64,000 bases of DNA from Clostridia bacterium (GTDB lineage: Bacteria; Bacillota; Clostridia; Christensenellales; CAG-138): NCBI GenBank assembly GCA_017428025.1, contig JAFRRO010000021.1, positions 11,752-75,751 of the forward strand. Direction: 5' to 3'. Both the position numbers and the translations under genes were made by a program. Of the stretch, positions 44,068-58,970 are shown one piece after another. The notes beneath the pieces were generated by a model that was not told where the DNA came from, ran no database searches, and saw nothing but the letters and a program-made list of their open reading frames with translations. Each line of letters begins with the position of its first letter. Within the stretch, counting starts at the first letter, position 1.

Positions 44068-45186
44068 TTATTTTGCCGCTTTCGCCGCGCGGATGGATTC
44101 GATCAGCTCCGGAACGACCTTGAAGAGGTCGCCCACGATGCCGTAGTCCGCACATTCGAAGATCGGCGCCGTCTCGTTCTTGTTGACCGCGATGATGCAT
44201 TCGGATTCCTGCATGCCCGCCTTGTGCTGGATCGCGCCGGAGATGCCGAGCGCGATATAGAGTTTGGGATGCACGGTCTTGCCGGTCTGTCCGACCTGAT
44301 GGTCGGCTCCGATCCAGCCCGCGTCGACGCAGGCACGGGATGCGCCAACGACGCCGCCGAGCTCCGCCGCAAGCTCCTCGGCAAGCGCAAGGCCCTTTTC
44401 GACATCCTTACTGATGCCGCGGCCGACGGAAACGATGCAGTCCGCGCCGATCAGATCGACGAGCTTCTTCGCCGCCTTGACGACCTCGACCACCTCGGTC
44501 TTGATATCCGAAGGCTTGAGATCGAATTCCGGATGGATCAGCTCCGCGGTTCTCGGATTCTCGCGCTTTTTCATGACGCCCGGGCGGACCGTCGCCATTG
44601 CGGGACGGAAGCGCGGGCAGATGATCGACGCCATGAGGTGTCCGCCGAACGCCGGACGCGTCATCTTGAGGTCGCGCGCGACGGAATGATCCGCGCCCGC
44701 AAGCCGCACGCTCTTGGTGCGCTCGATGCGCTCCTCGGGCAGCGTCGACGCCTCTCTAAGGAAGTTCTGATAATTTTGAAGATCGATATCGAGGTGCGTG
44801 CAGTCCGCGCAAAGACCGGTGTGCAGCCTTGCCGCGCAGCGCGGCGCGAGATCTCTGCCGATCGTCGATGCGCCGAACAGCAGGATTTCCGGCTTGAACG
44901 TTTCGACCGCGTCCGCGATGACCTTGGCATACGCGTCGGTGGTAAAGACCTTCAGAAGCGGGCTATTGTAGACATAGACCTTGTCCGCGCCGTATTTGCC
45001 GAGTTCGGGCGCGATGCCGTCCACGTTGTCGCCGAGGAGGATGCCGCAAAGCTCCACGCCGAGCTCGTCGGCAAGCTTGCGTCCCTCGCTGATCAACTCG
45101 AAGGTTGTCGGCATCATTTCGCCGTTGCGCTGCTCGCAGAAAACCCAGACGTTCTTGAAGGATTCGATTTCGGTGCTGCTAAACAT
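44068..45186 (-). CDS. etfA: Electron transfer flavoprotein subunit alpha
   Basis: VWVFCEQRNGE.., TRPAFGG, QVGQTGKTV.P.LYIALGISGAIQH.AGM. Contains an extra segment of about 30 aa after ..DCTHLDID. Confidence 0.9.
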   Translation of the reverse strand: MFSSTEIESFKNVWVFCEQRNGEMMPTTFELISEGRKLADELGVELCGILLGDNVDGIAPELGKYGADKVYVYNSPLLKVFTTDAYAKVIADAVETFKPEILLFGASTIGRDLAPRCAARLHTGLCADCTHLDIDLQNYQNFLREASTLPEERIERTKSVRLAGADHSVARDLKMTRPAFGGHLMASIICPRFRPAMATVRPGVMKKRENPRTAELIHPEFDLKPSDIKTEVVEVVKAAKKLVDLIGADCIVSVGRGISKDVEKGLALAEELAAELGGVVGASRACVDAGWIGADHQVGQTGKTVHPKLYIALGISGAIQHKAGMQESECIIAVNKNETAPIFECADYGIVGDLFKVVPELIESIRAAKAAK

Positions 45187-45204
45187 AGTTCGTTTCCCCC
45201 TCCC

Positions 45205-46005
45205 TCAGATGATGTGCTTGCCGGCCAAGATGCCCGCAAGTTTGTCGGTGGTTTCCCTGCCGTCGCCCGAAAGCATCATGCCTGCGCCCTTTTGCGGCGG
45301 TGTGAACGACGTGAGGATATTCGTCGGGGAACCCGCAAGACCGATCGTGCTCTTGTCGATCAGCGGATGATCCTTCAGCGTTTCGTAGGTCATCGTGACG
45401 ACGTCCTTCCGATAGCACTCGAAGATGCCCGCGATGTTCATGTAGCGCGGCTTGTTCAGCTCCTTGATGCAGGTGATCATGCACGGCGTCTGGACCTTGA
45501 CGGTCATATAGCCGTCCTCTAAGATGCGCTTGACGGTCAGGGTATTGCCGTCCTTTTTGATCTCGCCCGCATAGGTGACCTGCGGCAGATGCAGCTTTTC
45601 CGCAATCTGCGGACCGACCTGCGCGGTGTCGCCGTCGATCGCCTGACGTCCCGCAAGGATGATGTCCTCGGGTTCGACGCCGTAGGTGTCGATTGCCGCC
45701 GCGATGATCTGGCTCGTCGCATAGGTGTCGGAACCGCCGAACTCGCGCGCGGTGATCAGAACGCCCTCGTCGACGCCCATCGCCATGAGCTCGCGGAGCA
45801 TGCCCTCGGCGGGCGGCGGGCCCATCGTGAACGCGATGACCTTGCAGCCGAGCTCGTCTTTGAGCGTCAGCGCGGCTTCGACCGCGTTCATATCGTCGGG
45901 GTTGATGATCGTCTGCATGGATGCGCGGTCGAGCGTGCCGTCCGGATTGACGGCGACCGTGCCGGAGGTATCGGGAACCTGCTTTACGGTAACAAAAATC
46001 TTCAT
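45205..46005 (-). CDS. etfB: Electron transfer flavoprotein subunit beta
   Basis: MKIFVTVKQVPDT...NPDDMNAVEAAL.., 266 aa. Confidence 0.9.
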   Translation of the reverse strand: MKIFVTVKQVPDTSGTVAVNPDGTLDRASMQTIINPDDMNAVEAALTLKDELGCKVIAFTMGPPPAEGMLRELMAMGVDEGVLITAREFGGSDTYATSQIIAAAIDTYGVEPEDIILAGRQAIDGDTAQVGPQIAEKLHLPQVTYAGEIKKDGNTLTVKRILEDGYMTVKVQTPCMITCIKELNKPRYMNIAGIFECYRKDVVTMTYETLKDHPLIDKSTIGLAGSPTNILTSFTPPQKGAGMMLSGDGRETTDKLAGILAGKHII

Positions 46006-46020
46006 GTTCTCTGCCCTCCT

Positions 46021-47163
46021 TTACTTCACGCCGAGGTTGGCGGCGATGACCATGCGCTGGACCTCGCTCGTGCCCTCGTAGATCTCGGTGATCTTCGCGT
46101 CGCGCATCATGCGCTCCACGGGATATTCACGCGTGTAGCCGTAGCCGCCGAACAGCTGCACGGCACGGCGCGTCACGTCCGACGCCGCCTCCGCGGCAAA
46201 GAGCTTTGCCATCGCGGCTTCCATGCTGCAGCGCTCGTGCGCCTGCTTCTTCAGCGCGGCGTTGTAGACCAGGAACTGTGCCGCCTGCATGCGGGTGTGC
46301 ATGTCGGCGATCTGGAACTGCGTGTTCTGGAACGAGCTGATGCGCTTTTTGAACTGCACGCGCTCCTTCGTATACTTGATCGCTTCCTCGATCGCGCCTT
46401 CGCCGATGCCCAGCGCCTGCGCCGCAATGCCGATGCGTCCGCCGTCGAGCGTCTGCATGGCGATCTTGAAGCCCGCGCCTTCCTTGCCGAGCAGGTTCTC
46501 CTTCGGAACGATGCAGTCCTCGAAGATCAGATCGCAGGTCGAACTGCCGCGGATGCCCATCTTCTTCTCATGCTTGCCCTGCGAGAATCCGGGGAAGCCC
46601 TTTTCCACGATGAACGCGGAGATGCCGCGGTTGCCGAGCTTCGGATCGGTCATGGCGAACACCACGAACACATCCGCAACGCTGCCGTTGGTGATAAAGC
46701 ACTTGGAGCCGTTCAGCACATAGTGATCGCCGTCGAGCACCGCGGTGGTCTGCTGACCGGATGCGTCGGTGCCGGCGTTCGGCTCGGTAAGTCCGAACGC
46801 GCCGAGCTTTCTGCCGGAGCAGAGATCGGGCAGGTACTTTTTCTTTTGTTCCTCGGTGCCGTTCTCAAAGATCGGCGCGCAGCACAGCGAGGTGTGCGCC
46901 GACACGATGACCGCGGTGGTGCCGCAGACCTTCGCAAGCTCCTCGACCGTGATCGCGTAGCTCAACGCGTCGCCGCCCGCGCCGCCGTACTCCTTCGGGA
47001 AGTAGATGCCCATCATGCCGAGCTTCGCCATCTTTTCGACGGTTTCCGCCGGGAAGCGCTCTTCCTCGTCGATCTCGCTCGCGATCGGCTTCACTTCGTT
47101 CTCTGCGAATTCGCGCACCATCTTGCGAACCAGCAGTTGTTCCTTCGTCAGACGAAAATCCAT
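46021..47163 (-). CDS. bcd: Butyryl-CoA dehydrogenase (short-chain acyl-CoA dehydrogenase)
   Basis: 380 aa; GAFGLTEPNAGTDA, ..QLFGGYGYTREYPVERMMRDAKITEIYEGTSEVQ. Confidence 0.9.
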   Translation of the reverse strand: MDFRLTKEQLLVRKMVREFAENEVKPIASEIDEEERFPAETVEKMAKLGMMGIYFPKEYGGAGGDALSYAITVEELAKVCGTTAVIVSAHTSLCCAPIFENGTEEQKKKYLPDLCSGRKLGAFGLTEPNAGTDASGQQTTAVLDGDHYVLNGSKCFITNGSVADVFVVFAMTDPKLGNRGISAFIVEKGFPGFSQGKHEKKMGIRGSSTCDLIFEDCIVPKENLLGKEGAGFKIAMQTLDGGRIGIAAQALGIGEGAIEEAIKYTKERVQFKKRISSFQNTQFQIADMHTRMQAAQFLVYNAALKKQAHERCSMEAAMAKLFAAEAASDVTRRAVQLFGGYGYTREYPVERMMRDAKITEIYEGTSEVQRMVIAANLGVK

Positions 47164-47175
47164 TCTCAGTCTCCT

Positions 47176-48012
47176 TTACTTGCCGTATTTGAAGAAGCCT
47201 TCGCCCGTCTTGATGCCGAGCTTGCCCGCGCGGACCATCTTGCGGATCAGCACGTTTGCGCGATACTTCGAATCGTGCGTCTCGTTGTAGAGCACGTCCA
47301 TGATGTTCAGCACAACGTCCCAGCCGATCAGGTCGCCGAGGTGCAGCGGTCCCATCGGATGGTTGCAGCCGAGCTGCATTGCGATATCGATGTCCTCCGC
47401 GTTCGCAACGCCCTCCTGCAGCACGCAGACGCCCTCGTTGCAATACGGAATCAGGATCTTGTTGACCACAAAGCCCGGCGCCTCGTTGACGACGACCGGC
47501 GTCTTGCCGATCTCGATGACGAGGTTCTTCGTCCATTCGACGAGCTCGGACGGCGTGTTTGCGCCCGCAATGACCTCGACGAGCTTCATGACCGGAACCG
47601 GATTGAAGAAGTGCATACCCACCATCGGGTGCGTGAGCCCTCTTGCCATCTCGGTGATCGACAGCGACGACGTGTTGGTCGCAAAGACGGTCTCGTCCTT
47701 GCAGAGCGTGTCGAGACGCGCAAGGAGTTCCTTCTTGACCGCCATGTTCTCCGCCACGCACTCGATGACGAGGTCCGCGTCCGCCGCCGCAGCGACTTCC
47801 TCGACGAGGATGCGGCTCATGAGATCGTCCGCCGCTTCCTGCGTCATCTTGCCCTTTGCAACGCGCTTATTGAGCGACGCCGCCAGCTTGTCCTTGTGCC
47901 GCTGTGCGCTCTCCACGCTCGTCGCATACAGCAGAGCCGTATGACCGTTTGCCGAAAAGACCTGCGCGATACCGCTGCCCATCGTTCCTGCGCCGAAAAT
48001 TGCAACTTTCAT
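47176..48012 (-). CDS. hbd: 3-hydroxybutyryl-CoA dehydrogenase
   Basis: Start MKVAIFGAGTMGSGIAQV (48012) behind AGGAGG; HFFNPVPVMKLVE. The 636-aa track ORF reads through repeats into the crt region in a wrong frame. Confidence 0.9.
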   Translation of the reverse strand: MKVAIFGAGTMGSGIAQVFSANGHTALLYATSVESAQRHKDKLAASLNKRVAKGKMTQEAADDLMSRILVEEVAAAADADLVIECVAENMAVKKELLARLDTLCKDETVFATNTSSLSITEMARGLTHPMVGMHFFNPVPVMKLVEVIAGANTPSELVEWTKNLVIEIGKTPVVVNEAPGFVVNKILIPYCNEGVCVLQEGVANAEDIDIAMQLGCNHPMGPLHLGDLIGWDVVLNIMDVLYNETHDSKYRANVLIRKMVRAGKLGIKTGEGFFKYGK

Positions 48013-48090
48013 GTTTGTTCCTCCTAAGTGTATTTTAATGGATGTTTCGGACCCTGTCCGTTGGTTTGCTCCTGTGTCGAAATGCTCCCC

Positions 48091-48223
48091 TTGCCTTCCC
48101 TGTGCAAGGGAGGGTGTCGGCGAAAGCCGACGGGAGGGTTGTCTTCCCCTTTGCCGGTTCGTCATTATTCTTGCCCTCCCTGTGCAAGGGAGGGTGTCGG
48201 CGAAAGCCGACGGGAGGGTTGTC
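48091..48223. repeat. Two direct copies of a type A REP-like variant between crt and hbd
   Basis: Identical 46-mers ccctgtgcaagggagggtgtcggcgaaagccgacgggagggttgtc at 48098-48143 and 48178-48223 (80-bp spacing). Hairpins ccct-gtgca-aggg and gtcggc-gaaa-gccgac. The second copy abuts the crt stop. Confidence 0.9.
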
Positions 48224-49001
48224 ACCGGTTCCGGTAGGGCTCGTGACGGCGCTTTTCGAGGAATGCGCCCATGCCCTCCTTCTGGTCCTCCGTCTCGAAG
48301 CAGCTGCCGAACAGATTTTCTTCGAGCGCGACCGCTTCGTCCATCGGAAGCTCCAGACCGCGGTCGATCGCTTCCTTGCAGGCGCGCACCGCGATCGGCG
48401 CATTGCGCGCAATCGTCTCGGCAAGCTTCAGTGCCGCGGGCATCAGTTCTTCCTGCGGATAGATCGCGTTGACCAGACCGATGCGCAGCGCTTCGTCCGC
48501 CTTGATGTTCTTCGCCGAATAGATCATCTGCTTTGCCATGCCGGGACCGACGAGCCGGCTGAGCCGCTGCGTGCCGCCGAAGCCCGGCGTGATGCCGAGT
48601 CCCGTCTCGGGCTGACCGAACACCGCGGTGTCCGCGCAGATGCGGATGTCGCACGCCATGCCGATTTCGCAGCCGCCGCCCAATGCGTAGCCGTTGACCG
48701 CCGCGATCGTCGGGATCGGAAGCCGTTCGAGCTTTAGGAACACGTCGTTGCCCTTTTTGCCGAACGCCTCGCCCTCGGCTTTGGTGAGCGTCGACATCTC
48801 GCCGATGTCCGCGCCCGCGACGAACGCCTTTTCGCCGCTGCCGGTGAGAATCAGTACGCGGATCGCATCGTCCGCTCCGACCGCATCGAGCAGTTCGTCC
48901 AGCTCGTCGAGCACCGCGGAGTTCAGCGCGTTCAGCGCGTTCGGGCGATGGATCGCCGCGATCGCGACGCTGCCCTTCTTTTCGAATAAAATATGCGTCA
49001 T
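48222..49001 (-). CDS. crt: Short-chain enoyl-CoA hydratase (crotonase)
   Basis: 259 aa; ..AIHRPNALNALN.., TGSGEKAFVAGADI, GGGCE. Confidence 0.9.
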   Translation of the reverse strand: MTHILFEKKGSVAIAAIHRPNALNALNSAVLDELDELLDAVGADDAIRVLILTGSGEKAFVAGADIGEMSTLTKAEGEAFGKKGNDVFLKLERLPIPTIAAVNGYALGGGCEIGMACDIRICADTAVFGQPETGLGITPGFGGTQRLSRLVGPGMAKQMIYSAKNIKADEALRIGLVNAIYPQEELMPAALKLAETIARNAPIAVRACKEAIDRGLELPMDEAVALEENLFGSCFETEDQKEGMGAFLEKRRHEPYRNR

Positions 49002-50080: not shown

Positions 50081-50218
50081 AGGCGAATTCTGTCCGGGAT
50101 CCGTCTTTTTTGTTGCTTTTTCCGTTCACCTCTGATACTATATATAATGAAGTGATATAAGCCTTCATTTGTTCCCCGTTTTCTTTGGTATCAGGTGCAA
50201 TCCGGAAAGGGCTCCGCT

Positions 50219-52948
50219 ATGGAACAATCTAAGTACTGCGCATTTATCAGCTATCGCCACCTCTCGCCCGATCAGGAGATCGCGAAGGCGCTGCACACGG
50301 CGATCGAGACGTATCACATCCCCTCCAACATTCAGAAGAAGACCGGCAAGAAGCGCATGGGACGCGTGTTCCGCGATCAGGAGGAGCTGCCGCTTTCCGC
50401 GGACCTCGGCGCGGACATCGAGACCGCGCTCGATTCGAGCGACTGGCTGATCGTCGTCTGCTCGCCGCGCTATCAGCAGAGCCGCTGGTGCATGCGCGAG
50501 CTCGAATATTTTGTCGAGCACAAGGGGCGCGAACGCGTGATCGCGATCCTCGCCGAAGGCGAGCCGGGCGAAACGTTCCCCGACGAGATCCGCTATTCGG
50601 TCGACAGCGAGGGCAACCGGATCGAGATCGATCCGCATGCCGCGGACGTGCGCGGCGCCGATCTCAAAGAGAGCTTCAAGAAGCTCAAGAACGAAAAGCT
50701 GCGTCTGCTGGCGCCGATGCTGTCCGTCACCTATGACGAATTGAAGCGCCGCGAGCGGCAGCGCAGACGCAAAAAGATCCTGATCTCCGCCGCCGCGGTC
50801 TTTGTCGCCGCGATCGGGCTCGGCACGTTTCTGACCGTCAGCCACATCCGCAACGAAGCGCTGAAGCGCGAAGCGGCGGCGCAGCAGGCGATCGCCGAGG
50901 AACAGGCGCGGCTTGCCGAAGAACGGCGGAAGCTTGCCGAGGAGGAACAGCGCCGTGCCGAGGAAGAGCGCAAAAAGGCGGTCTACAACGACCTCGGCGA
51001 GCGCATGGAGCGCGCGGCGGCTGCGCTTTCCGAGGGAGAAAAGCGTGAAGCGGCGAAGATCCTGACCGACGCGATCGCAATCAGCGACAAGGAGGAGCAG
51101 ATGCGCCGCGACGAGATCCTTGCCCTGATGCGCCGCACGATGTACATCGAGCCGTTCACGATCGTATCGAGCTTCAACAACCAGAACATGCAGCTGAACT
51201 TCATCGCGGCGTCGCCGGACGGCACGCGCGCGGTCGGCGTGGTCAACAACAACTCAATCGCCATGGTCGACCTTGTGCAGAACGAGATTCTTTATACGGT
51301 CACCGCGGACAACGCGATCATGATGTATCCGGAATTCTCGCAGGACGGCACGCGGTTTCTGGCGGACTGCGATTACGGGCGGTTTGTACAGGTGTGGAAC
51401 ACGGAGGACGGTTCCGAAGCGTTCCGCTATACGAGCAAGCTGAACGCTCCGTACGAGATCGGTACGCATTATTTCTGGAAGGACGCCGACACGCTGCTTG
51501 TACAGGATCAGGACAAGCTGCTGCTCGTTTCCTCGGACGGAACGGAAAAGGTATTCTATACCCTGGGCGATCAGATGGAGGACTATGATCCGGCGAAAAA
51601 CTTCCTGTCACAGCTTTTGGGCGGCGTCCCGCTTGACAAGCTGTTCTCCAACGTGCAGGAGGGATATGCGGGCATCCAGGTGCTCGTTTCCGACGATCGC
51701 GAACGCGTTGTCGTATCCGGAAAGGCGGGCGAGCTTGCGGTCATCGTGCTGGACAGCGAGGGAAAGCGTTTGTTTATTCCGTCCAGTCCGCTGGACGATT
51801 CCTCCAAGATGGCGGGGACGTTTGCGGAAAAGTGGAAGCTTTCGCCCGACGGCAAAACGCTTTGCTGCCTGTCCTTCTATCTGCTGATTGCGAGCTGGGA
51901 CGTCGATACCGGGCAGATGATTTATATTGACGTCGACGACCGCGATCTGATGAACACGCCCACCGAACCGGTCTTTACCCCGGATTCAAATCGCATGGCG
52001 TACGCGATCGGAAACGTGCTCCACGTCTGCGACGCAAGGTCCAACCAACCGATCCTGACGGCGAACCTCGACGACACAATGTTTGTACCGTCGATCGCGT
52101 TCTCCGACGACGGCAAGTATCTTTTGATGACAAACGAAGCGATGTTCATCATCAATACCGAGAACTGGGCGGCGGAGCTGATCGTATCGGCGGAGGGCAC
52201 CAACTTCAACGGCATCATTCCGATGAAGAACATGGTTCTTTGCTCGCGCTACGACGGCGTCATTTTCTTCTACAGTCTGCCGGCGCTTTCATCCATCGAA
52301 ACATCGGATCACTTCGACGGTACTCTGATGGATCCGTATCTGGCGCAGCGGGCGGTCGAGTGCGTATCGCTCACAAGCGAACACGAGCTTTCGCCGACGT
52401 TCAAACAGACGAACTACTATAAGGATTATCCGCCGCAGCTCTTCTTCTCGATCGACGGCAGCGTTGCCGCGATGGCGCATCCGGACGGCACGATTGAGCT
52501 GTTCGATACGCAGGGAGACGGCACGGTCAAGGATACGGTCGGACAGCTGTATACCTATATCAACGCGCTTGCTCTCACCGAAGACCGGCTGATCGCGATC
52601 GACGTTGAAACACGCATGATGGTCTACAATCTCAAAACCAATTCCGTCGAGAAGATCTGGAACAACGGCACGCAGTATTCGTCCTTCGCGTTCAACGAGG
52701 ACAGCGGTCTGATGATGGCGATGTGCGCAGGACAGACAAAGATCGACGTCTTTGATCTGAACGACGACTGCAGATTGCTGTTCTCGATGCATGCCACGGA
52801 GGACACGTTCACGGATATGGCGTTTTCCTCCGACGGCGCATACGCGGTCGGAAAAACCGCCTCCGGGCAGTATGTGATCGGAAACCTGTTTGCGAACGAG
52901 GAAGAACTTGTTGCGCGCACAACAGCGTTTGCAATAGGCAAACAATAA
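50219..52948 (+). CDS. TIR domain, single TM helix, coiled coil and beta-propeller (PD40/WD40-like) protein
   Basis: TIR: YCAFISYRH, FRDQEELPLSADLG, SDWLIVVCSPRYQQSRWCMRELEYF (S-x-W-C-x-x-E-L glutamate context). RRERQRRRKK followed by the hydrophobic helix ILISAAAVFVAAIGLGTFLTV. About 100 aa of E/R/A-rich coiled coil. Then at least 8 blade-like repeats (ASPDGTRAV, SQDGTRFLA, SSDGTEKVF, SPDGKTLCC, TPDSNRMAY, SDDGKYLLM, HPDGTIELF, SSDGAYAVG). ATG at 50219 preferred over GTG at 50195. Confidence 0.8.
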   Translation: MEQSKYCAFISYRHLSPDQEIAKALHTAIETYHIPSNIQKKTGKKRMGRVFRDQEELPLSADLGADIETALDSSDWLIVVCSPRYQQSRWCMRELEYFVEHKGRERVIAILAEGEPGETFPDEIRYSVDSEGNRIEIDPHAADVRGADLKESFKKLKNEKLRLLAPMLSVTYDELKRRERQRRRKKILISAAAVFVAAIGLGTFLTVSHIRNEALKREAAAQQAIAEEQARLAEERRKLAEEEQRRAEEERKKAVYNDLGERMERAAAALSEGEKREAAKILTDAIAISDKEEQMRRDEILALMRRTMYIEPFTIVSSFNNQNMQLNFIAASPDGTRAVGVVNNNSIAMVDLVQNEILYTVTADNAIMMYPEFSQDGTRFLADCDYGRFVQVWNTEDGSEAFRYTSKLNAPYEIGTHYFWKDADTLLVQDQDKLLLVSSDGTEKVFYTLGDQMEDYDPAKNFLSQLLGGVPLDKLFSNVQEGYAGIQVLVSDDRERVVVSGKAGELAVIVLDSEGKRLFIPSSPLDDSSKMAGTFAEKWKLSPDGKTLCCLSFYLLIASWDVDTGQMIYIDVDDRDLMNTPTEPVFTPDSNRMAYAIGNVLHVCDARSNQPILTANLDDTMFVPSIAFSDDGKYLLMTNEAMFIINTENWAAELIVSAEGTNFNGIIPMKNMVLCSRYDGVIFFYSLPALSSIETSDHFDGTLMDPYLAQRAVECVSLTSEHELSPTFKQTNYYKDYPPQLFFSIDGSVAAMAHPDGTIELFDTQGDGTVKDTVGQLYTYINALALTEDRLIAIDVETRMMVYNLKTNSVEKIWNNGTQYSSFAFNEDSGLMMAMCAGQTKIDVFDLNDDCRLLFSMHATEDTFTDMAFSSDGAYAVGKTASGQYVIGNLFANEEELVARTTAFAIGKQ

Positions 52949-53023
52949 ACACGTCTTTTGCTCTGTTTCAAAGCAGATGCATTTCTATGACAGCAGAAAG
53001 ATTTACATAAAGGAGAGAAACAA

Positions 53024-55057
53024 ATGGCATATACGGCATTGGAACGGATGCGGCAACGGAACAGGGAGCGGTTCGGAAAGGACATCGGTCCGAAGCAGCC
53101 GGCGCTGTACAGGCGCGCCGTTCGCGGCAACGATCTGAAATCCGCGGCGCTGCGTTTTCTGCATGAGCGCTGCGAAGGGCTGCGGCTCTCGGCGGATCGG
53201 GAAGCGGAGGAAGCGGAACGCGGCGTGTATCTCGGCAGGAGCATCCGCCCGAATCAGATTCCGTACAACATGCAGATGGACATCGACCGCCTGTGCCTCG
53301 AGCGCGAGCTGGAGAAGTTCATCGATTCCGGCGTTGCGGAGGATGCCTATACCGTATATTACAGCTACCTCGAAATGTTCATGGGCGAATACGGACGGTC
53401 GCGCAAGATGGTCGAGCTGCTCTCCGAATTCGAATCCAACGCGAGCTCGCTTCTCATGAAGCACCGCGATCACTACTCGCATTCGGTCTATGTGTTCGCG
53501 CTCGGACTTGCGATCTACGAGGCAAACGAGCGGTACCGCAGCACGTTCAAGCGCTTCTATCGTCTCGAGGATCGGAGCGAGCATGAAGCCGCGGCGTTCT
53601 TCCTCGAATACTGGGGGCTGACCGCGCTGTTCCACGACATCGGATATCCGTTCGAGATCCCGTTCGAACAGGTGCTTGCGTACTTCGAAGTGGAGCAGAA
53701 GGAGCGCGGCGAGGGCTGTCTGTACCTCTCGTATCACGACCTGACCTGCCTCAACCGGATCGACGCGGACGCGAACGCGCGGTTCGAAGCGCTGTTTTCA
53801 CGCACGTTCGCCGACGTCAACGAACTGCTGGCATACGGCATCGCGCAGCGGCTCGGCGCGGCGTACGGCATTTCGGAAGAACAGCTCAAAGACACGATCG
53901 CGCGCAAGCCGACGAATCCCGAGCAGTTCGGCTACTATATGGACCACGCCTATTTCTCCGCGACGCGGCTCTATCAGGAGTTGGTCGAGGAGCGCGGCGC
54001 AGCGTTTCTGACGCCGGCGCATCTCGACGTGCTGACCGCGATCATGCTGCACAACAGCCTCTATAAGTTCGCGATCGCGTTCTATAAATCCAAGACCAAG
54101 TGCAAGCCGCCGCTCAAAGCGGAGCTGCATCCGCTTGCGTATCTGCTGATGCTCTGCGACGAGCTGCAATGCTGGGACCGCACCGCGTACGGCAGAAACT
54201 CGCGTACCGAGCTGCACCCGATGGAAGCCGCGTTCGACTTCTCGAAGGGCGCGATCCGCGCGTCCTACTTCTATGACAAGGACGAGACCGGCAAGATCCT
54301 CGCCTATCAGATCCGGTACCGCGAATGGGCGGGCGGCGACCGCACGACGACTGCGCCGCGGCTCAAGGCGTACAGCGACATGGCGGAATCGGAGCAGCGG
54401 TTCCTGAGGGACATCGAACGCATCGTCGACCTGTCCGAATGCCCGCTGACCGTCGAAGCGGCGCTGCGTCCCGTCGATTACCGGAGCAAGCACACGTATC
54501 TGTCCGCGTCGAGCTTTTTGCACATGTACGACTTCGCGGTTGCGCTCAACGCCCGCTATCGCTACGAGGACCGCGAGGATACGGTCTCGACGGATCAGCT
54601 CGAACGCGAATTCGACGAGATGTCGCTCGAATATCAGCTCAGCAACATCAATCAGGTCAAGAGCTTTTCGAAGTATCTGAACGCCATCGGCTGCTTCTAT
54701 ATCGACAAGCCGGTGGATTTCGAGATGCTGCACGCGTTCAGCGAGGACCAGACGTCCGTCTTCGCTCCGATGGAGCACGAGCGCTGGGTGCGCGAGCACG
54801 CCGCTGCCGGCTGGACCTGCGGAACGAACTATCTGACCGCGCCGGTCGAAGGCGACGAAGCCGCGGAGCGCGGCAATCTGCGCGAACAGCTGCGGCAGCA
54901 CGCGCTGTGCATGAACGGCAATCCGGATGACGCCGCGATCCGCGCGCATTATCTGGAGCTTTCTCCGGCGGATCAGGGAAAGGACTGGAAACCGTTCAAC
55001 AGCATGCTGAAGCTGATCAAAAAGTTCGACGGCCTGCGCATCTACCGGCTGTCGTAA
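53024..55057 (+). CDS. HD-domain phosphohydrolase fused to C-terminal RyR-like repeats
   Basis: HD superfamily motifs KHRDHYSHSVYVFALG, ALFHDIGYPFE, LLMLCDELQCWDR. C-terminus MEHERWVREHAAAGWTCG ... YLELSPADQGKDWKPFNSMLKLIKKFDGLRIY resembles the RyR repeat (H-E-x-W ... G-W-x-x-G ... L-s-x-x-x-K-x-x-D). It is preceded by a second related repeat (..EMSLEYQLSNINQVKSFSKYLNAIG). AAAGGAGAG RBS. 75 nt after the TIR gene. Confidence 0.75.
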   Translation: MAYTALERMRQRNRERFGKDIGPKQPALYRRAVRGNDLKSAALRFLHERCEGLRLSADREAEEAERGVYLGRSIRPNQIPYNMQMDIDRLCLERELEKFIDSGVAEDAYTVYYSYLEMFMGEYGRSRKMVELLSEFESNASSLLMKHRDHYSHSVYVFALGLAIYEANERYRSTFKRFYRLEDRSEHEAAAFFLEYWGLTALFHDIGYPFEIPFEQVLAYFEVEQKERGEGCLYLSYHDLTCLNRIDADANARFEALFSRTFADVNELLAYGIAQRLGAAYGISEEQLKDTIARKPTNPEQFGYYMDHAYFSATRLYQELVEERGAAFLTPAHLDVLTAIMLHNSLYKFAIAFYKSKTKCKPPLKAELHPLAYLLMLCDELQCWDRTAYGRNSRTELHPMEAAFDFSKGAIRASYFYDKDETGKILAYQIRYREWAGGDRTTTAPRLKAYSDMAESEQRFLRDIERIVDLSECPLTVEAALRPVDYRSKHTYLSASSFLHMYDFAVALNARYRYEDREDTVSTDQLEREFDEMSLEYQLSNINQVKSFSKYLNAIGCFYIDKPVDFEMLHAFSEDQTSVFAPMEHERWVREHAAAGWTCGTNYLTAPVEGDEAAERGNLREQLRQHALCMNGNPDDAAIRAHYLELSPADQGKDWKPFNSMLKLIKKFDGLRIYRLS

Positions 55058-56509: not shown

Positions 56510-57562
56510 TTATACGACCGACAGATAGGGCGTGGCGTTGAGGTCGAGCCCGTCGCGGTGCCCCTTCATCAGCAGATAGAAACCGGCGCTGCCGATCATC
56601 GCGGCATTGTCGGTGCAGTAACGGAAATCGGGACAGCAGAAGCGGATCCCCTTTTTCTTCGCCTTTCTCGCAAGCATATCCCGGAGCGCCGCGTTTGCGG
56701 AAACGCCGCCCGCCAGCGCAAGCGTATCGGAGGCGGCGCGCACCGCCTTGTCCGAGAGGATCGAGATCACCTCATACTGAAAGCTTGCCGCAACGTCCGC
56801 GCGGTTCACGTCCTCGCCGCGCTGTTCGGCGGTGTGCAGCACGTTGATGACCGCGGTCTTCAGTCCCGAAAAGCTCATGTCGTATTCGTCCTCGCGCTCG
56901 TTGAACGCGGAACGGAAGCGGATCGCCTTCGGATCGCCGTCCTTCGCAAGCTTCTCCAGCTCCGGACCGCCGGGATACGGCAAGCCCAGAACGCGGGCAA
57001 CCTTGTCGAACGCCTCGCCCGCCGCGTCGTCGCGCGTACGGCCGATCAGCGTGCAGCGGTCGTAGTCCTCGACGCGCACGATATGGCTGTGCCCGCCCGA
57101 TGCGATCAGGCAGGTGAACGGCGGTTCGAGATCGGAAAACGTCAGATAGTTCGCGGCGATGTGTCCGAGGATGTGATTGGTGCCGACCAGCGGCAGATTG
57201 TGCGACAGCGCGAGTCCCTTTGCGTAGCTCACGCCGACCAGCAGCGCGCCGACCAGACCGGGACCGCAGGTGACCGCGACCGCGTCGACGTCGTCAAGCA
57301 TCATCGCCGCATCCTGTAAAGCCTTTTCGACGACCGCGCCGATGCGCTCCACATGGTTGCGGCTCGCAAGCTCCGGCACGACGCCGCCGTACTTGCGGTG
57401 CAGCGGAATCTGCGTGTGCACGACGTTCGAAAGCACCTCGCGCCCGTCGCGCACGATCGCGCACGCGGTCTCGTCGCACGAGGTCTCGATCGCAAGCACC
57501 GTCGCGTGACCGCTATGGATTAGCGCTTCCTGTTTTTCTTTCGCCAGTTGTTCGTAACTCAT
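56510..57562 (-). CDS. tsaD: tRNA N6-adenosine threonylcarbamoyltransferase
   Basis: VLAIETSCDETACAIV, GVVPELASRNH, SGGHS, GGVSAN motifs. Start at MSYEQL (57562), ATGA overlap with the upstream gene. Confidence 0.9.
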   Translation of the reverse strand: MSYEQLAKEKQEALIHSGHATVLAIETSCDETACAIVRDGREVLSNVVHTQIPLHRKYGGVVPELASRNHVERIGAVVEKALQDAAMMLDDVDAVAVTCGPGLVGALLVGVSYAKGLALSHNLPLVGTNHILGHIAANYLTFSDLEPPFTCLIASGGHSHIVRVEDYDRCTLIGRTRDDAAGEAFDKVARVLGLPYPGGPELEKLAKDGDPKAIRFRSAFNEREDEYDMSFSGLKTAVINVLHTAEQRGEDVNRADVAASFQYEVISILSDKAVRAASDTLALAGGVSANAALRDMLARKAKKKGIRFCCPDFRYCTDNAAMIGSAGFYLLMKGHRDGLDLNATPYLSVV

Positions 57563-58902
57563 TCGTCCCGCTCTTTCCGTTCCGTCTCCTCCGGCTGTTC
57601 GTTTATCCCTTCCGGCTCCCCTGCGCAAGGATTGCTGTCTGCTTCTGCAGACTGAGTGGTTGTTTCCTCCGTGTCGTCGCGCAGTTCGATCGTCGGCTCC
57701 TCCGGCTCCTCACTCGGCTCCTCGGGCTGTTCTCTCGTCTCCTCCGGCTCCCCTGCGCAAGGGTTGCTGTCTGCTTCTGCAGACTGAGGGGTTGTCTCCT
57801 CCGTGTCGTCGCGCAGTTCGATCGTCGGTTCCTCCGGCTCCTCACTCGGCTCCTCGGGCTGTTCGCTCGTCTCCTCCGGCTCCCCTGTGCAAGGGGAGCT
57901 GTCACCGTCAGGTGACTGAGGGGTTGTTCCCGCCTCCTCCGTGTCGTCGCGCAGTTCGATCGTCGGTTCCTCCGGCGCTTCGGGCTTCTGCGGCTCGTCA
58001 AACAGCGGCAGCCCCTTCTTCGCGCGGCGCCGCAGTTCCTCCCGTTTGCTGACCGGCGCGTTCCGGATCTGATGCGCAAGCACAAGGTCCGGTCCGTCGA
58101 TCGCGACCGGCTCGTTCGCGTCGTGCTCCACGGTGACGATATCCGCCACGGCCTCCGTGACCTTCTTCCGTCCGATGAAGCGGACCATGAGCCCGATCAG
58201 CAGCACGAAGGCGATCTCCGCGATCACGAAGATCGCGCAGCGCAGCACCAGTCCCGGGAAGATCGGCATCAGCATGTTGACCATGATGCTGTCGCTCGAA
58301 AGCACCCAGTTCAGCTCGTTCAGCGCCTCGGGCGTCGCGCCCGCGGCAAGGTACTGGAACAGCGAACCGGGGAACAGCACGAAATGGAACACGGTCCAGA
58401 AGCTCTGGAAGTTCATGATCGCCCACGCGCCGAAGAACACGAGCACGCCGCCGAAGATTCCCGCGCCCCATATGACGCCGGAACCGAAGATCGGACGCCG
58501 CTTTCCGCGTTCGGGCAGGGCGATGCCGGTCACCAGCAGCGCTGCCGCCGCCATCACGGCATACCAGGAGAACGCATCGAGCCCGAGCCAGAGCGACTGT
58601 ACCTCCGCCATGTGCACAACTTCCTTTTCGTGATAGAAGATGTTTTCGAGCTCGGCGCCGTTGACGCGCGCGGCGAAGTGGATGTTTTCGCGCTCGCCGC
58701 GCATGTAGGAAAGCAGCACCTCCGTCGCCGCGGACAGATCGGGCACGCTCATGCCCATCAGCTCGCTGACGTTCTGCTTCTGATACTGTTCCTCAATATA
58801 ATCGCTGTCCTTCAAAACGAGTGCGGTCGAATGAAACCCTGCCGCAAACAGCAGCAGCAGCGTTGCAAGAATCACGCACAGTTTTCCGATGGTATTTCGC
58901 AT
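57559..58902 (-). CDS. DUF1461/TIGR01906-like integral membrane protein (Lit-like) with a repeat-derived acidic C-terminal tail
   Basis: Start MRNTIGKL (58902) behind GGAGG. N-terminal about 270 aa has 4-5 TM segments and ..FYHEKEVVHMAEV.. The C-terminal about 130 aa is three E/P-rich repeats. Confidence 0.65.
   Translation of the reverse strand: MRNTIGKLCVILATLLLLFAAGFHSTALVLKDSDYIEEQYQKQNVSELMGMSVPDLSAATEVLLSYMRGERENIHFAARVNGAELENIFYHEKEVVHMAEVQSLWLGLDAFSWYAVMAAAALLVTGIALPERGKRRPIFGSGVIWGAGIFGGVLVFFGAWAIMNFQSFWTVFHFVLFPGSLFQYLAAGATPEALNELNWVLSSDSIMVNMLMPIFPGLVLRCAIFVIAEIAFVLLIGLMVRFIGRKKVTEAVADIVTVEHDANEPVAIDGPDLVLAHQIRNAPVSKREELRRRAKKGLPLFDEPQKPEAPEEPTIELRDDTEEAGTTPQSPDGDSSPCTGEPEETSEQPEEPSEEPEEPTIELRDDTEETTPQSAEADSNPCAGEPEETREQPEEPSEEPEEPTIELRDDTEETTTQSAEADSNPCAGEPEGINEQPEETERKERDE
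57600..57995. repeat. Three tandem 132-138 bp repeats inside the CDS, each containing a type A REP-like element
   Basis: Type A cores at 57614-57663, 57746-57795 and 57878-57927. Anchor ccgtgtcgtcgcgcagttcgatcgtcgg at 57669, 57801 and 57939. The third core is 50/50 identical to intergenic 5494-5543. Confidence 0.9.
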
Positions 58903-58931
58903 TTGTCCTCCAAACGCACCTATGTTTTTCC

Positions 58932-58970
58932 GTTCCAAGATCCTTCGTCGCTCCGTTTCTCAGGATGACA
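58932..58970. repeat. Type B REP-like element
   Basis: gttccaagatccttcgtcgctccgtttctcaggatgaca; same ends as the copies at 3931-3966, 6116-6148 and 42578/42893. Confidence 0.8.

Follow-up and report, generated by a model that had tools for sequence, protein, structure and literature searches.

Can a bacterium couple recognition at its surface to signalling by a TIR domain? Bacterial TIR systems in the literature searched are described as sensing intracellular events. The question is raised by a gene in a 64,000-nucleotide stretch of contig JAFRRO010000021.1 (positions 11,752 to 75,751 of the forward strand), here called the window, which comes from a butyrate-producing Clostridia metagenome-assembled genome (MAG) with about 60% GC. 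This gene encodes a 909-residue protein that carries, from its N to its C terminus, a TIR domain, a basic stretch, one hydrophobic helix, a helical stalk and tandem propellers. The protein may be the outward-facing sensor of a Thoeris-like TIR signalling system that includes a linked partner, and we put the probability of this whole chain at roughly 0.5.

The five-part layout is far beyond chance. It recurs in all 76 full-length homologues that were compared, each from a different species, and in 123 of the 131 long representatives of clusters formed at 50% identity. An earlier reading of this DNA from its letters alone had proposed a reading frame with a TIR domain of about 160 residues, a basic stretch, a transmembrane helix, about 100 residues of E/R/A-rich coiled coil and a long series of repeats. 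All of these parts are present (Table 1).

The reading frame begins with an ATG at position 50219, and its stop codon ends at 52948. An alternative in-frame GTG at 50195 would lengthen the protein by 8 residues. The ATG is the preferred start in the sequence because GGAAAGGG, which resembles a Shine-Dalgarno element, lies 7 nt upstream and because homologues begin at the same methionine. An AT-rich stretch is found further upstream, at about 50130-50160. Of the 679 homologues that database searches return at E<=1e-5, many are full-length proteins. An AlphaFold2 model built on 61 homologues has a mean predicted local distance difference test score (pLDDT) of 85.7.

TIR domain, membrane anchor and ectodomain

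The N-terminal domain is matched by the Pfam models TIR_2 (51.1 bits at residues 9-116, cut-off 28), TIR (35.9 bits, cut-off 21.3) and ThsB_TIR (27.3 bits, cut-off 21.2), and residues 6-167 are modelled as a compact α/β domain. The NCBIfam model for the Thoeris type III protein ThcB4 scores 16.4 bits versus 220. Residues 49-104 align with the NADase-type plant TIR domains of flax L6 (3ozi) and AtTIR (3jrn), and with TLR1. The segment S88-R-W-C-M-R-E94-L aligns with the S-x-W-C-x-x-E-L of all three proteins, so that TLR1 also carries a glutamate at the position aligned to E94. In TIR NADases, the glutamate of this motif, which belongs to helix αC, is the catalytic residue. E94 is kept in at least 95% of 75 aligned sequences (the query and 74 species homologues). 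The motif W-[C]-x-x-E-[L] is present in 219 of 221 family sequences, and both exceptions are fragments without a TIR domain. From its sequence, then, the TIR domain looks catalytic and of the NADase type.

A single segment of the protein is a candidate for a membrane anchor. I187-V207 (ILISAAAVFVAAIGLGTFLTV) provides the sole 19-residue span above a Kyte-Doolittle value of 1.4, with a peak of 2.4, and the next-best span anywhere reaches 1.15. The same scan reveals no signal peptide, as the N terminus is not hydrophobic. Simple summation of biological hydrophobicity values gives -1.1 kcal/mol for the 21-mer. In the structural model, a long helix runs through the basic stretch and the hydrophobic segment. 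Confidence is low at residues 190-219, plausibly because no membrane was modelled.

The predicted topology was examined across evolution with the 76 species homologues. Every one has exactly one hydrophobic segment of 20-23 residues, placed about 185-200 residues from the N terminus, and none has a second segment above Kyte-Doolittle 1.53. The segment is also single and at the same place in the 123 long cluster representatives that share the layout. Its position is conserved and its sequence is not (32% mean identity), a combination typical of a membrane anchor. In the 15 residues to either side of the segment, lysine and arginine average 6.6 on the TIR side versus 3.1 on the other, and they are more numerous on the TIR side in all 76 proteins. 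The protein is very probably a single-pass, N-in/C-out (type II) membrane protein with its TIR domain in the cytoplasm and its propellers outside. This prediction follows from the absence of a signal peptide, the 185-residue N-terminal domain and, by the positive-inside rule, the strongly basic N-terminal flank. Both the membrane span and the orientation put forward in the original prediction are thus upheld in silico. The ectodomain would presumably sense a surface cue.

Between anchor and propellers lies the stalk, rich in E, R and K, for which the model predicts helices at residues 216-271, 275-291 and 297-308. It differs in length among homologues through insertions of 28-56 residues of AEEE/QR type. 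Insertions that preserve composition in this way are expected if the stalk serves as a spacer rather than as a binding domain.

The remainder of the ectodomain is a predicted double propeller. The model places 49 β strands between residues 315 and 889, mostly with pLDDT >90. All top matches in a Foldseek search of the PDB are tandem two-propeller WD40 proteins (E about 1e-22, 600-700 aligned columns), including Nostoc 2ymu with 14 blades, Aip1 (1nr0), Utp21 (4nsx), Pwp2 (5i2t) and Apaf-1. Pfam families of WD40-type propellers match residues 316-446, 540-692 and 742-889, and about 12 blade signatures of the [FL]S-x-D-G type can be seen by eye. Strand count and sequence motifs together suggest about 12-14 blades. 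The closest PDB sequence is the WD40 domain of the kinase PkwA (5yzv, E 1.1e-5). The Pfam WD40 repeat model PF00400 stays below its cut-off (15.4 bits versus 27), and the repeats are divergent. Some relatives pass this model strongly, for example P0179 with 428 bits.

Other propeller types were considered and set aside. The TolB model TIGR02800 gives only 13.2 bits versus 343, and the fold matches are of WD40 type. A PD40-like assignment reaches 23.6 bits versus 20.9 for the whole protein, yet no single stretch passes. The expectation of a large or double propeller has therefore held, as a double one, whereas the suggested TolB/PD40-like type has given way to a WD40 type.

The architecture belongs to a large family without a name rather than to a lone oddity. 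A scan of one genome per species found relatives in no fewer than 152 species, most of them Bacillota of the rumen and gut (Clostridia MAGs). The principal hosts are Ca. Limivicinus, Oscillospiraceae, Lachnospiraceae, Christensenellales and Erysipelotrichaceae; others include the cultured Alkalibacter mobilis and one Sumerlaeota MAG. More than 120 clusters at 50% identity share the TIR-transmembrane (TM)-ectodomain layout. Existing annotation reads only 'toll/interleukin-1 receptor domain-containing protein' or 'WD40 repeat protein'.

Conservation is distributed unevenly along these proteins. Among the 74 species homologues, mean identity to the window protein is 62% in the TIR domain (minimum 48%), compared to 34% in the stalk and 33% in the propellers. 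In the family's more distant half, propeller identity is down to 15%, and divergent members still match WD40, PQQ or PD40-type propeller families. Two relatives differ from the window gene (50219-52948) in opposite ways. The homologue in locus L022 (6001-8724) is 87% identical in its TIR domain and 81% in its TM helix, with propellers at 35-40%. This locus is syntenic with the window, with an EamA gene product 86% identical and a downstream gene product 77% identical. In locus L005 (703-3435), TIR identity is 64%, TM identity is 33% and the propellers are 80-90% identical. The receptors are mosaics, which suggests that ectodomains have been exchanged by recombination. Two or three paralogues are present in several of the MAGs. 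Diversifying pressure on a receptor family would be expected to yield such a combination, in which the signalling end is conserved and the ectodomain is shuffled and evolves fast.

Linked genes and a proposed mechanism

The gene that follows the TIR gene encodes a 677-residue protein. No terminator-like site is predicted in the 75-bp gap between them, and the two genes are probably co-transcribed. More than 2185 homologues of the 677-residue protein are known, all named 'hypothetical' and without a Pfam domain. Its structural model is confident (predicted template modelling score 0.89). None of its fold matches in the PDB is significant (best E 0.026), and neither single-sequence nor profile searches found a match among PDB sequences.

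The partner carries conserved HD-like motifs. The residues of its motifs HRDHYSHS and LFHDIGYPFE are invariant in 45 homologues, and the invariant positions of the family include H147/H150/H153, H204-D205, H343 and D379. The motifs fit the H...HD...D pattern of HD phosphohydrolases, and the fold is weakly similar to the HD domains of PPX/GppA. The Pfam HD model gives 14.1 bits versus a cut-off of 22, with weak E-values of 0.003-0.058 and matches in 5 of the 45 homologues. Similarity to Pfam RyR is seen in 12 of the 45, in each case below the cut-off. The only Pfam and NCBIfam matches on the partner are HD, RyR and ParB_C, all sub-threshold.

Linkage between the two genes was examined from both directions. 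The 677-residue protein gene adjoins TIR-TM-WD40 genes in 13 of 79 species loci, in varying order and on varying strands, and some of the TIR proteins found beside it are only 28-42% identical to that of the window. In the reverse test, 80 metagenome loci were retrieved via the 677-residue protein. A TIR reading frame lies within 3 kb of the homologue in 41 of these, and within 300 bp in 31. Where at least 3 kb is available on both flanks, TIR genes are nearby in 12 of 17 loci. The two genes stay together even in locus L048, in which the TIR-family protein is 28% identical overall (59% in its TIR domain) and the partner is 36% identical.

TIR proteins of at least five architectures neighbour the partner gene. 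They include TIR-TM-WD40, TIR-TPR/Sel1, TIR-NB-ARC-TPR and LRR_5-TIR-Sel1, and a further type is a trio of TIR or TIR-like-TM-leucine-rich repeat (LRR) proteins. Judging from these gene arrangements, the 677-residue protein gene acts as a hub that varied TIR sensors share. It might be argued that this gene is merely a core gene that flanks a defence hotspot. Such an explanation is thought less likely, since TIR adjacency persists while the wider context changes, TIR genes lie on either side of the partner gene, and the L048 pair remains linked though both proteins are highly diverged.

Several of these neighbours deserve a description of their own. TIR proteins that are cytoplasmic are encoded directly beside the partner gene in L107 (3449-8891), L134 (8520-10802), L148 (10109-12637) and L114 (6598-9423); this group comprises TIR-NB-ARC-TPR (two copies), TIR-TPR/Sel1 and LRR_5-TIR-Sel1 proteins. 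The trio occurs beside 677-residue homologues in L084 (9603-14710), in L085 and L086 (9042-14116), and also in L090, L096-L098, L108, L109, L113, L121, L122, L137 and L151. Its members have an N-terminal TIR or TIR-like domain, one TM segment at about residues 125-165 and C-terminal leucine-rich repeats. They measure about 280, 390 and 1020-1300 residues, and only the protein of about 390 residues has both a Pfam TIR_2 match and the glutamate motif. In form, the TIR-TM-LRR trio comes nearer to Toll-like receptors than does the window protein. Related neighbourhoods also encode a Ser/Thr kinase-TM-LRR protein (L084, 5150-6862) and a kinase-WD40 protein without a detectable TM segment (L156, 6364-10035), which are receptor-like proteins with another output domain.

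A third component is found in relatives of the window locus. A membrane protein of about 530 residues, SLOG-like and SLATT-like, is encoded next to the TIR-TM-WD40 gene, the 677-residue protein gene or both in 46 loci. At fixed positions, it matches SLOG (YAcAr) in 6 of 9 homologues and DUF4231, which we take to be the founding SLATT family, in 7 of 9. NCBIfam SLATT_3/4/1 models match 8 of 8 homologues. All of these matches are sub-threshold. The gene comes after the 677-residue protein gene in 31 of the 80 metagenome loci. In those family members that have diverged most, it lies immediately next to the TIR-TM-WD40 gene (L044 from Alkalibacter, L058 from Sumerlaeota, L069, L048 and L023). All three genes occur together in relatives whose TIR proteins are 59-69% identical to the window protein (L014, L087, L009, L010 and L012). 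Linkage to the 677-residue partner, and to the SLOG-like/SLATT protein in relatives, points to TIR signalling rather than to a stand-alone sensor. The reading of the system as Thoeris-like stems from the fact that a TIR gene beside a SLOG or SLATT effector gene is a Thoeris configuration.

We infer a mechanism in which membrane topology, NADase or signalling activity, activation by clustering, a role for the partners and an immune function fit together as follows. In this monoderm Clostridia bacterium, the TIR domain would lie in the cytoplasm, with a rigid helical stalk and tandem WD40 propellers outside the membrane. A ligand or a perturbation of the envelope would act on the hypervariable ectodomain and cause receptors to cluster, so that their TIR domains would meet in the cytoplasm. 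The NADase sites of TIR domains arise only upon self-association, as in SARM1, plant TNLs and bacterial TIR filaments. Given this need for self-association and a single-pass receptor, clustering would be a natural switch. The assembled TIR domains could then cleave NAD+ and release a signal derived from ADP-ribose. Here, this signal might act on the co-transcribed, HD-like 677-residue protein; in relatives, it might act also or instead on the SLOG-like/SLATT membrane protein. The cell would then stop growing or die.

A more ambitious extension can be offered only tentatively, as it is somewhat doubtful. TIR-TM-WD40 and TIR-TM-LRR proteins might be true transmembrane pattern-recognition receptors in bacteria, which bind extracellular ligands and relay this event across the membrane by clustering-induced TIR catalysis, so that an NAD-derived messenger switches on a novel HD-like effector, a SLOG/SLATT pore or both. 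Candidate ligands would be phage particles, wall fragments, or molecules from competitors or hosts. If this is correct, bacteria would have a functional equivalent of Toll-like receptors, and a Thoeris-type system able to respond before entry of the phage genome would be known for the first time.

Genomic context and alternative readings

In the window, the TIR gene is accompanied by a butyrate operon and by EamA, MATE and tsaD genes. Among relatives, its neighbours include prfA-prmC-sua5, rpiB, upp and V-ATPase genes. A complete butyrate-pathway cluster (44068-49001, minus strand) lies directly upstream of the EamA transporter gene and the TIR gene. From the translations, its products can be read as crotonase, 3-hydroxybutyryl-CoA dehydrogenase, butyryl-CoA dehydrogenase, EtfB and EtfA. 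No second TIR gene was found within the 64-kb window.

Two further observations concern this neighbourhood. Some distant family members come directly after sua5/tsaC, in the order prfA-prmC-sua5-TIR (L001/L002, 6910-7974), and the window TIR gene is about 3.5 kb from tsaD (56510-57628, minus strand). Both sua5/tsaC and tsaD are genes for the tRNA modification t6A, and their proximity in the two contexts is probably a coincidence. A separate open reading frame of 459 residues (57559-58938, minus strand) has a hydrophobic N-terminal half and, in its C-terminal half, three nearly identical acidic repeats (EPEEPTIELRDDTEE...TPQSAEADSNPCAGEPEE).

Table 1. Features of the TIR gene, its partner gene and third-component genes of relatives. 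Locations are window positions unless a locus (L) is given.
Feature	Location	Strand	Basis or remark
Shine-Dalgarno-like GGAAAGGG	50204..50211	+	7 nt before ATG; direct sequence reading
Coding sequence, 909-residue TIR-TM-stalk-double-propeller protein	50219..52948	+	Open reading frame list and translation
TIR domain (residues 6-167), predicted cytoplasmic	50234..50719	+	Pfam TIR_2 match, α/β model
SRWCMRELE motif (residues 88-96); E94, candidate catalytic glutamate	50480..50506	+	Alignment and conservation
Basic juxtamembrane stretch KRRERQRRRKK (residues 176-186)	50744..50776	+	Sequence
Predicted single transmembrane helix ILISAAAVFVAAIGLGTFLTV (residues 187-207)	50777..50839	+	Kyte-Doolittle peak
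E/R/K/A-rich helical stalk (residues 208-310)	50840..51148	+	Predicted helices; length varies in homologues
Tandem WD40-type double β-propeller (residues 311-893), predicted extracytoplasmic	51149..52897	+	Strands, Foldseek, Pfam
C-terminal helix behind propellers (residues 894-909)	52898..52945	+	Model helix 894-906
Strong ribosome-binding site AAAGGAGAG of partner gene	53009..53017	+	Sequence
Partner coding sequence, 677-residue uncharacterized cytoplasmic protein	53024..55057	+	Probably co-transcribed with TIR gene
HD-like putative metal-binding motifs of partner, HRDHYSHS (residues 147-154) and LFHDIGYPFE (residues 202-211)	53462..53656	+	
Weak RyR-domain similarity in partner (residues 562-603)	54707..54832	+	Pfam RyR E 0.023
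SLOG-like/SLATT gene	L087 9064-10656		
SLOG-like/SLATT gene	L014 10799-12445		
SLOG-like/SLATT gene	L044 8476-10128		
SLOG-like/SLATT gene	L058 8252-10129		
SLOG-like/SLATT gene	L069 8521-10122		
SLOG-like/SLATT gene	L048 6841-8529		
SLOG-like/SLATT gene	L023 2846-4465		

A number of results weigh against a Thoeris-like system with an outward-facing sensor. No defence island surrounds the TIR gene in the window or in loci L001-L004, where the neighbours are housekeeping genes. A search for known defence systems with PADLOC gives only weak PDC-S66 and ThsB matches on the TIR protein (ThsB1, 18.9 bits, E 2.5e-4) and none on the partner. Assignments of HD and RyR domains to the partner fall below Pfam cut-offs and are unaccompanied by a PDB match, as the SLATT and SLOG matches of the third component fall below theirs. 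No SLOG/SLATT gene was found within the window. The linkage is also incomplete, because 5 of the 17 long-flank partner loci have no TIR gene nearby and either partner is within 6 kb in only 19 of the 79 TIR-family loci. Finally, the system does not depend on outward sensing, given that the same neighbourhoods also encode TIR-TPR and kinase-WD40 proteins that are cytoplasmic.

Some of these results could be accommodated by transmembrane signalling with no role in immunity. The receptor might report on the state of the wall, on neighbouring cells or on host and dietary polymers, and pass an NAD-derived messenger to the HD-like protein. A housekeeping neighbourhood in the window and in relatives is in keeping with this idea, as are retention of the gene widely across related rumen lineages, the presence of kinase-TM-LRR and kinase-WD40 proteins (signal-transduction architectures) nearby, and the lack of a PADLOC match to the partner. 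We consider it unlikely, because conflict systems typically show hypervariable ectodomains, mosaicism and paralogy, effectors of the SLATT type are known to kill cells, and the TIR-STAND-TPR proteins of the same neighbourhoods have classic immune architectures. Alternatively, the TIR protein might bring about abortive infection by itself, depleting NAD+ with no diffusible signal, and the 677-residue neighbour would then be unrelated to it (syntenic or hotspot-flanking). The 60 of 79 TIR-family loci that show neither partner within 6 kb can be cited for this proposal, together with the purely housekeeping contexts of L001-L004 and the well-established NAD+-depleting TIR effectors of CBASS, Pycsar and SPARTA. 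It is quite improbable in view of a partner gene whose TIR neighbours, found to its left or right and amid changing context, represent at least five architectures, of a pairing that persists where both proteins have diverged (L048), and of SLOG-like/SLATT genes that abut the TIR gene in distant phyla.

The remaining alternatives question individual parts of the protein. If the hydrophobic segment were peripheral or otherwise failed to span the membrane, then the propellers would be cytoplasmic, as in STAND-WD40 and kinase-WD40 proteins, and the protein would be a membrane-tethered intracellular sensor. Most bacterial WD40-type propellers have indeed been described in cytoplasmic proteins, the kinase-WD40 protein of L156 lacks a detectable TM segment, the stalk is rich in K and R as well as E, and the model is uncertain at residues 190-219. 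This is very unlikely when set against a 21-residue segment whose position and charge bias are conserved in 76 of 76 homologues, whose hydrophobicity is high on the Kyte-Doolittle scale and whose summed biological hydrophobicity is negative. Moreover, a single span makes it impossible for both large domains to lie on one side, and sister proteins with LRR ectodomains share the layout. Even less credible is a TIR domain that acts purely as a scaffold for assembly, as in animal TLR/MyD88 signalling, with no NAD+ chemistry. Non-catalytic TIR domains from TLR1, TLR6 and MAL are among the matches, with E-values like those of some plant TIRs, but the best matches are NADase-type plant TIRs and the W-C-x-x-E-L motif is almost universally kept. 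Nor do the linked partners offer a TIR domain with which to assemble: the 677-residue protein has no TIR match, and the protein of about 530 residues has only SLOG/SLATT-type matches.

Comparison with known systems

No description of bacterial TIR-TM-WD40 proteins, TIR-TM-LRR proteins or the 677-residue family was found in the full-text literature searched, although absence there is no proof. The parts of the protein do have known counterparts. Residues 311-893 are structurally most similar to 2ymu, Aip1, Utp21, Pwp2 and Apaf-1. These proteins share only 9-15% identity with the window protein, are all intracellular and have unrelated functions.

Receptor kinases with extracellular propellers provide what may be the nearest bacterial analogy for the layout as a whole. 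Mycobacterium tuberculosis PknD is a receptor kinase with a kinase-TM-NHL propeller arrangement. Like PknD and PkwA-type kinases, the window protein would have a cytoplasmic enzyme at its N terminus, a single TM helix, and a propeller that serves as sensor at its C terminus. Unlike them, its output domain is a TIR domain and its propeller is a tandem double WD40 structure.

The proposed switch resembles that of SARM1, plant TNL resistosomes and bacterial TIR filaments, which share the W-x-x-x-E motif and for which the common theme would be induced TIR proximity. The sensors of those systems are cytoplasmic (ARM, NB-LRR, SAVED, STING or Argonaute partners), in contrast to a sensor that is predicted to lie across the membrane.

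Thoeris systems are the closest match in genetic organization. In Thoeris, a TIR protein makes a messenger derived from ADP-ribose that activates an effector (bioRxiv 10.64898/2025.12.03.692087). Pairings of TIR proteins with SLATT or SLOG effectors are established configurations, represented by types I, III and VII (bioRxiv 10.64898/2025.12.03.692087). The present family likewise encodes a TIR protein with a conserved catalytic-type glutamate beside a conserved partner that is not a TIR protein, one partner can occur with several different TIR sensors, and relatives of the window protein pair with a SLOG-like/SLATT membrane protein. The differences are also substantial. In the literature searched, ThsB proteins are not reported to have a membrane anchor or ectodomain, whereas here the TIR domain is fused to a TM helix and to about 700 residues that are predicted to be outside. 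Known ThsB proteins are small, soluble cytoplasmic proteins. The window partner is an uncharacterized HD-like protein with no match in the PADLOC defence library, and its context is not a defence island. An effector with a recognized signal-binding domain (SLOG, Macro or SLATT) is missing from the window, and is found by sub-threshold matches in seven loci from relatives (L014, L087, L044, L058, L069, L048 and L023). Because it lacks a recognized effector, the window locus is not filed as a Thoeris system and is best called Thoeris sensor-like by context. A large Thoeris survey began from defence-island enrichment and removed stand-alone TIR proteins, and a survey of this design would tend to miss the TIR-TM-WD40 family. 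The family is concentrated in rumen and gut Bacillota, a group that screens for defence systems cover poorly.

Animal Toll-like and IL-1 receptors are the other obvious point of reference. They are single-pass proteins with repeat-built ectodomains and cytoplasmic TIR domains, as is predicted for the window protein, and ligand-induced clustering would be a natural mode of activation for such a layout. Compared to Toll-like receptors, the window protein is reversed, with its TIR domain at the N terminus (TIR-TM-WD40). Its ectodomain is built from WD40 repeats rather than from LRR or Ig domains, and LRR versions exist in sister loci. Its TIR domain has the NADase-type glutamate motif (the aligned glutamate of TLR1 notwithstanding), and no gene nearby encodes an adaptor TIR. 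It resembles Toll-like receptors in logic alone, and nothing supports common descent of the whole architecture.

Relative to these systems, the locus is rated as TIR signalling in which the placement of the sensor and the candidate partner are both new. If the sensor does face outward, then surface recognition would be coupled to signalling by an NAD-derived second messenger. Animal Toll-like receptors follow the same logic, and such coupling could let the cell react to a phage before its DNA has entered. The confidently folded 677-residue family, with more than 2000 members, is a candidate for a new effector or regulator of TIR signalling.

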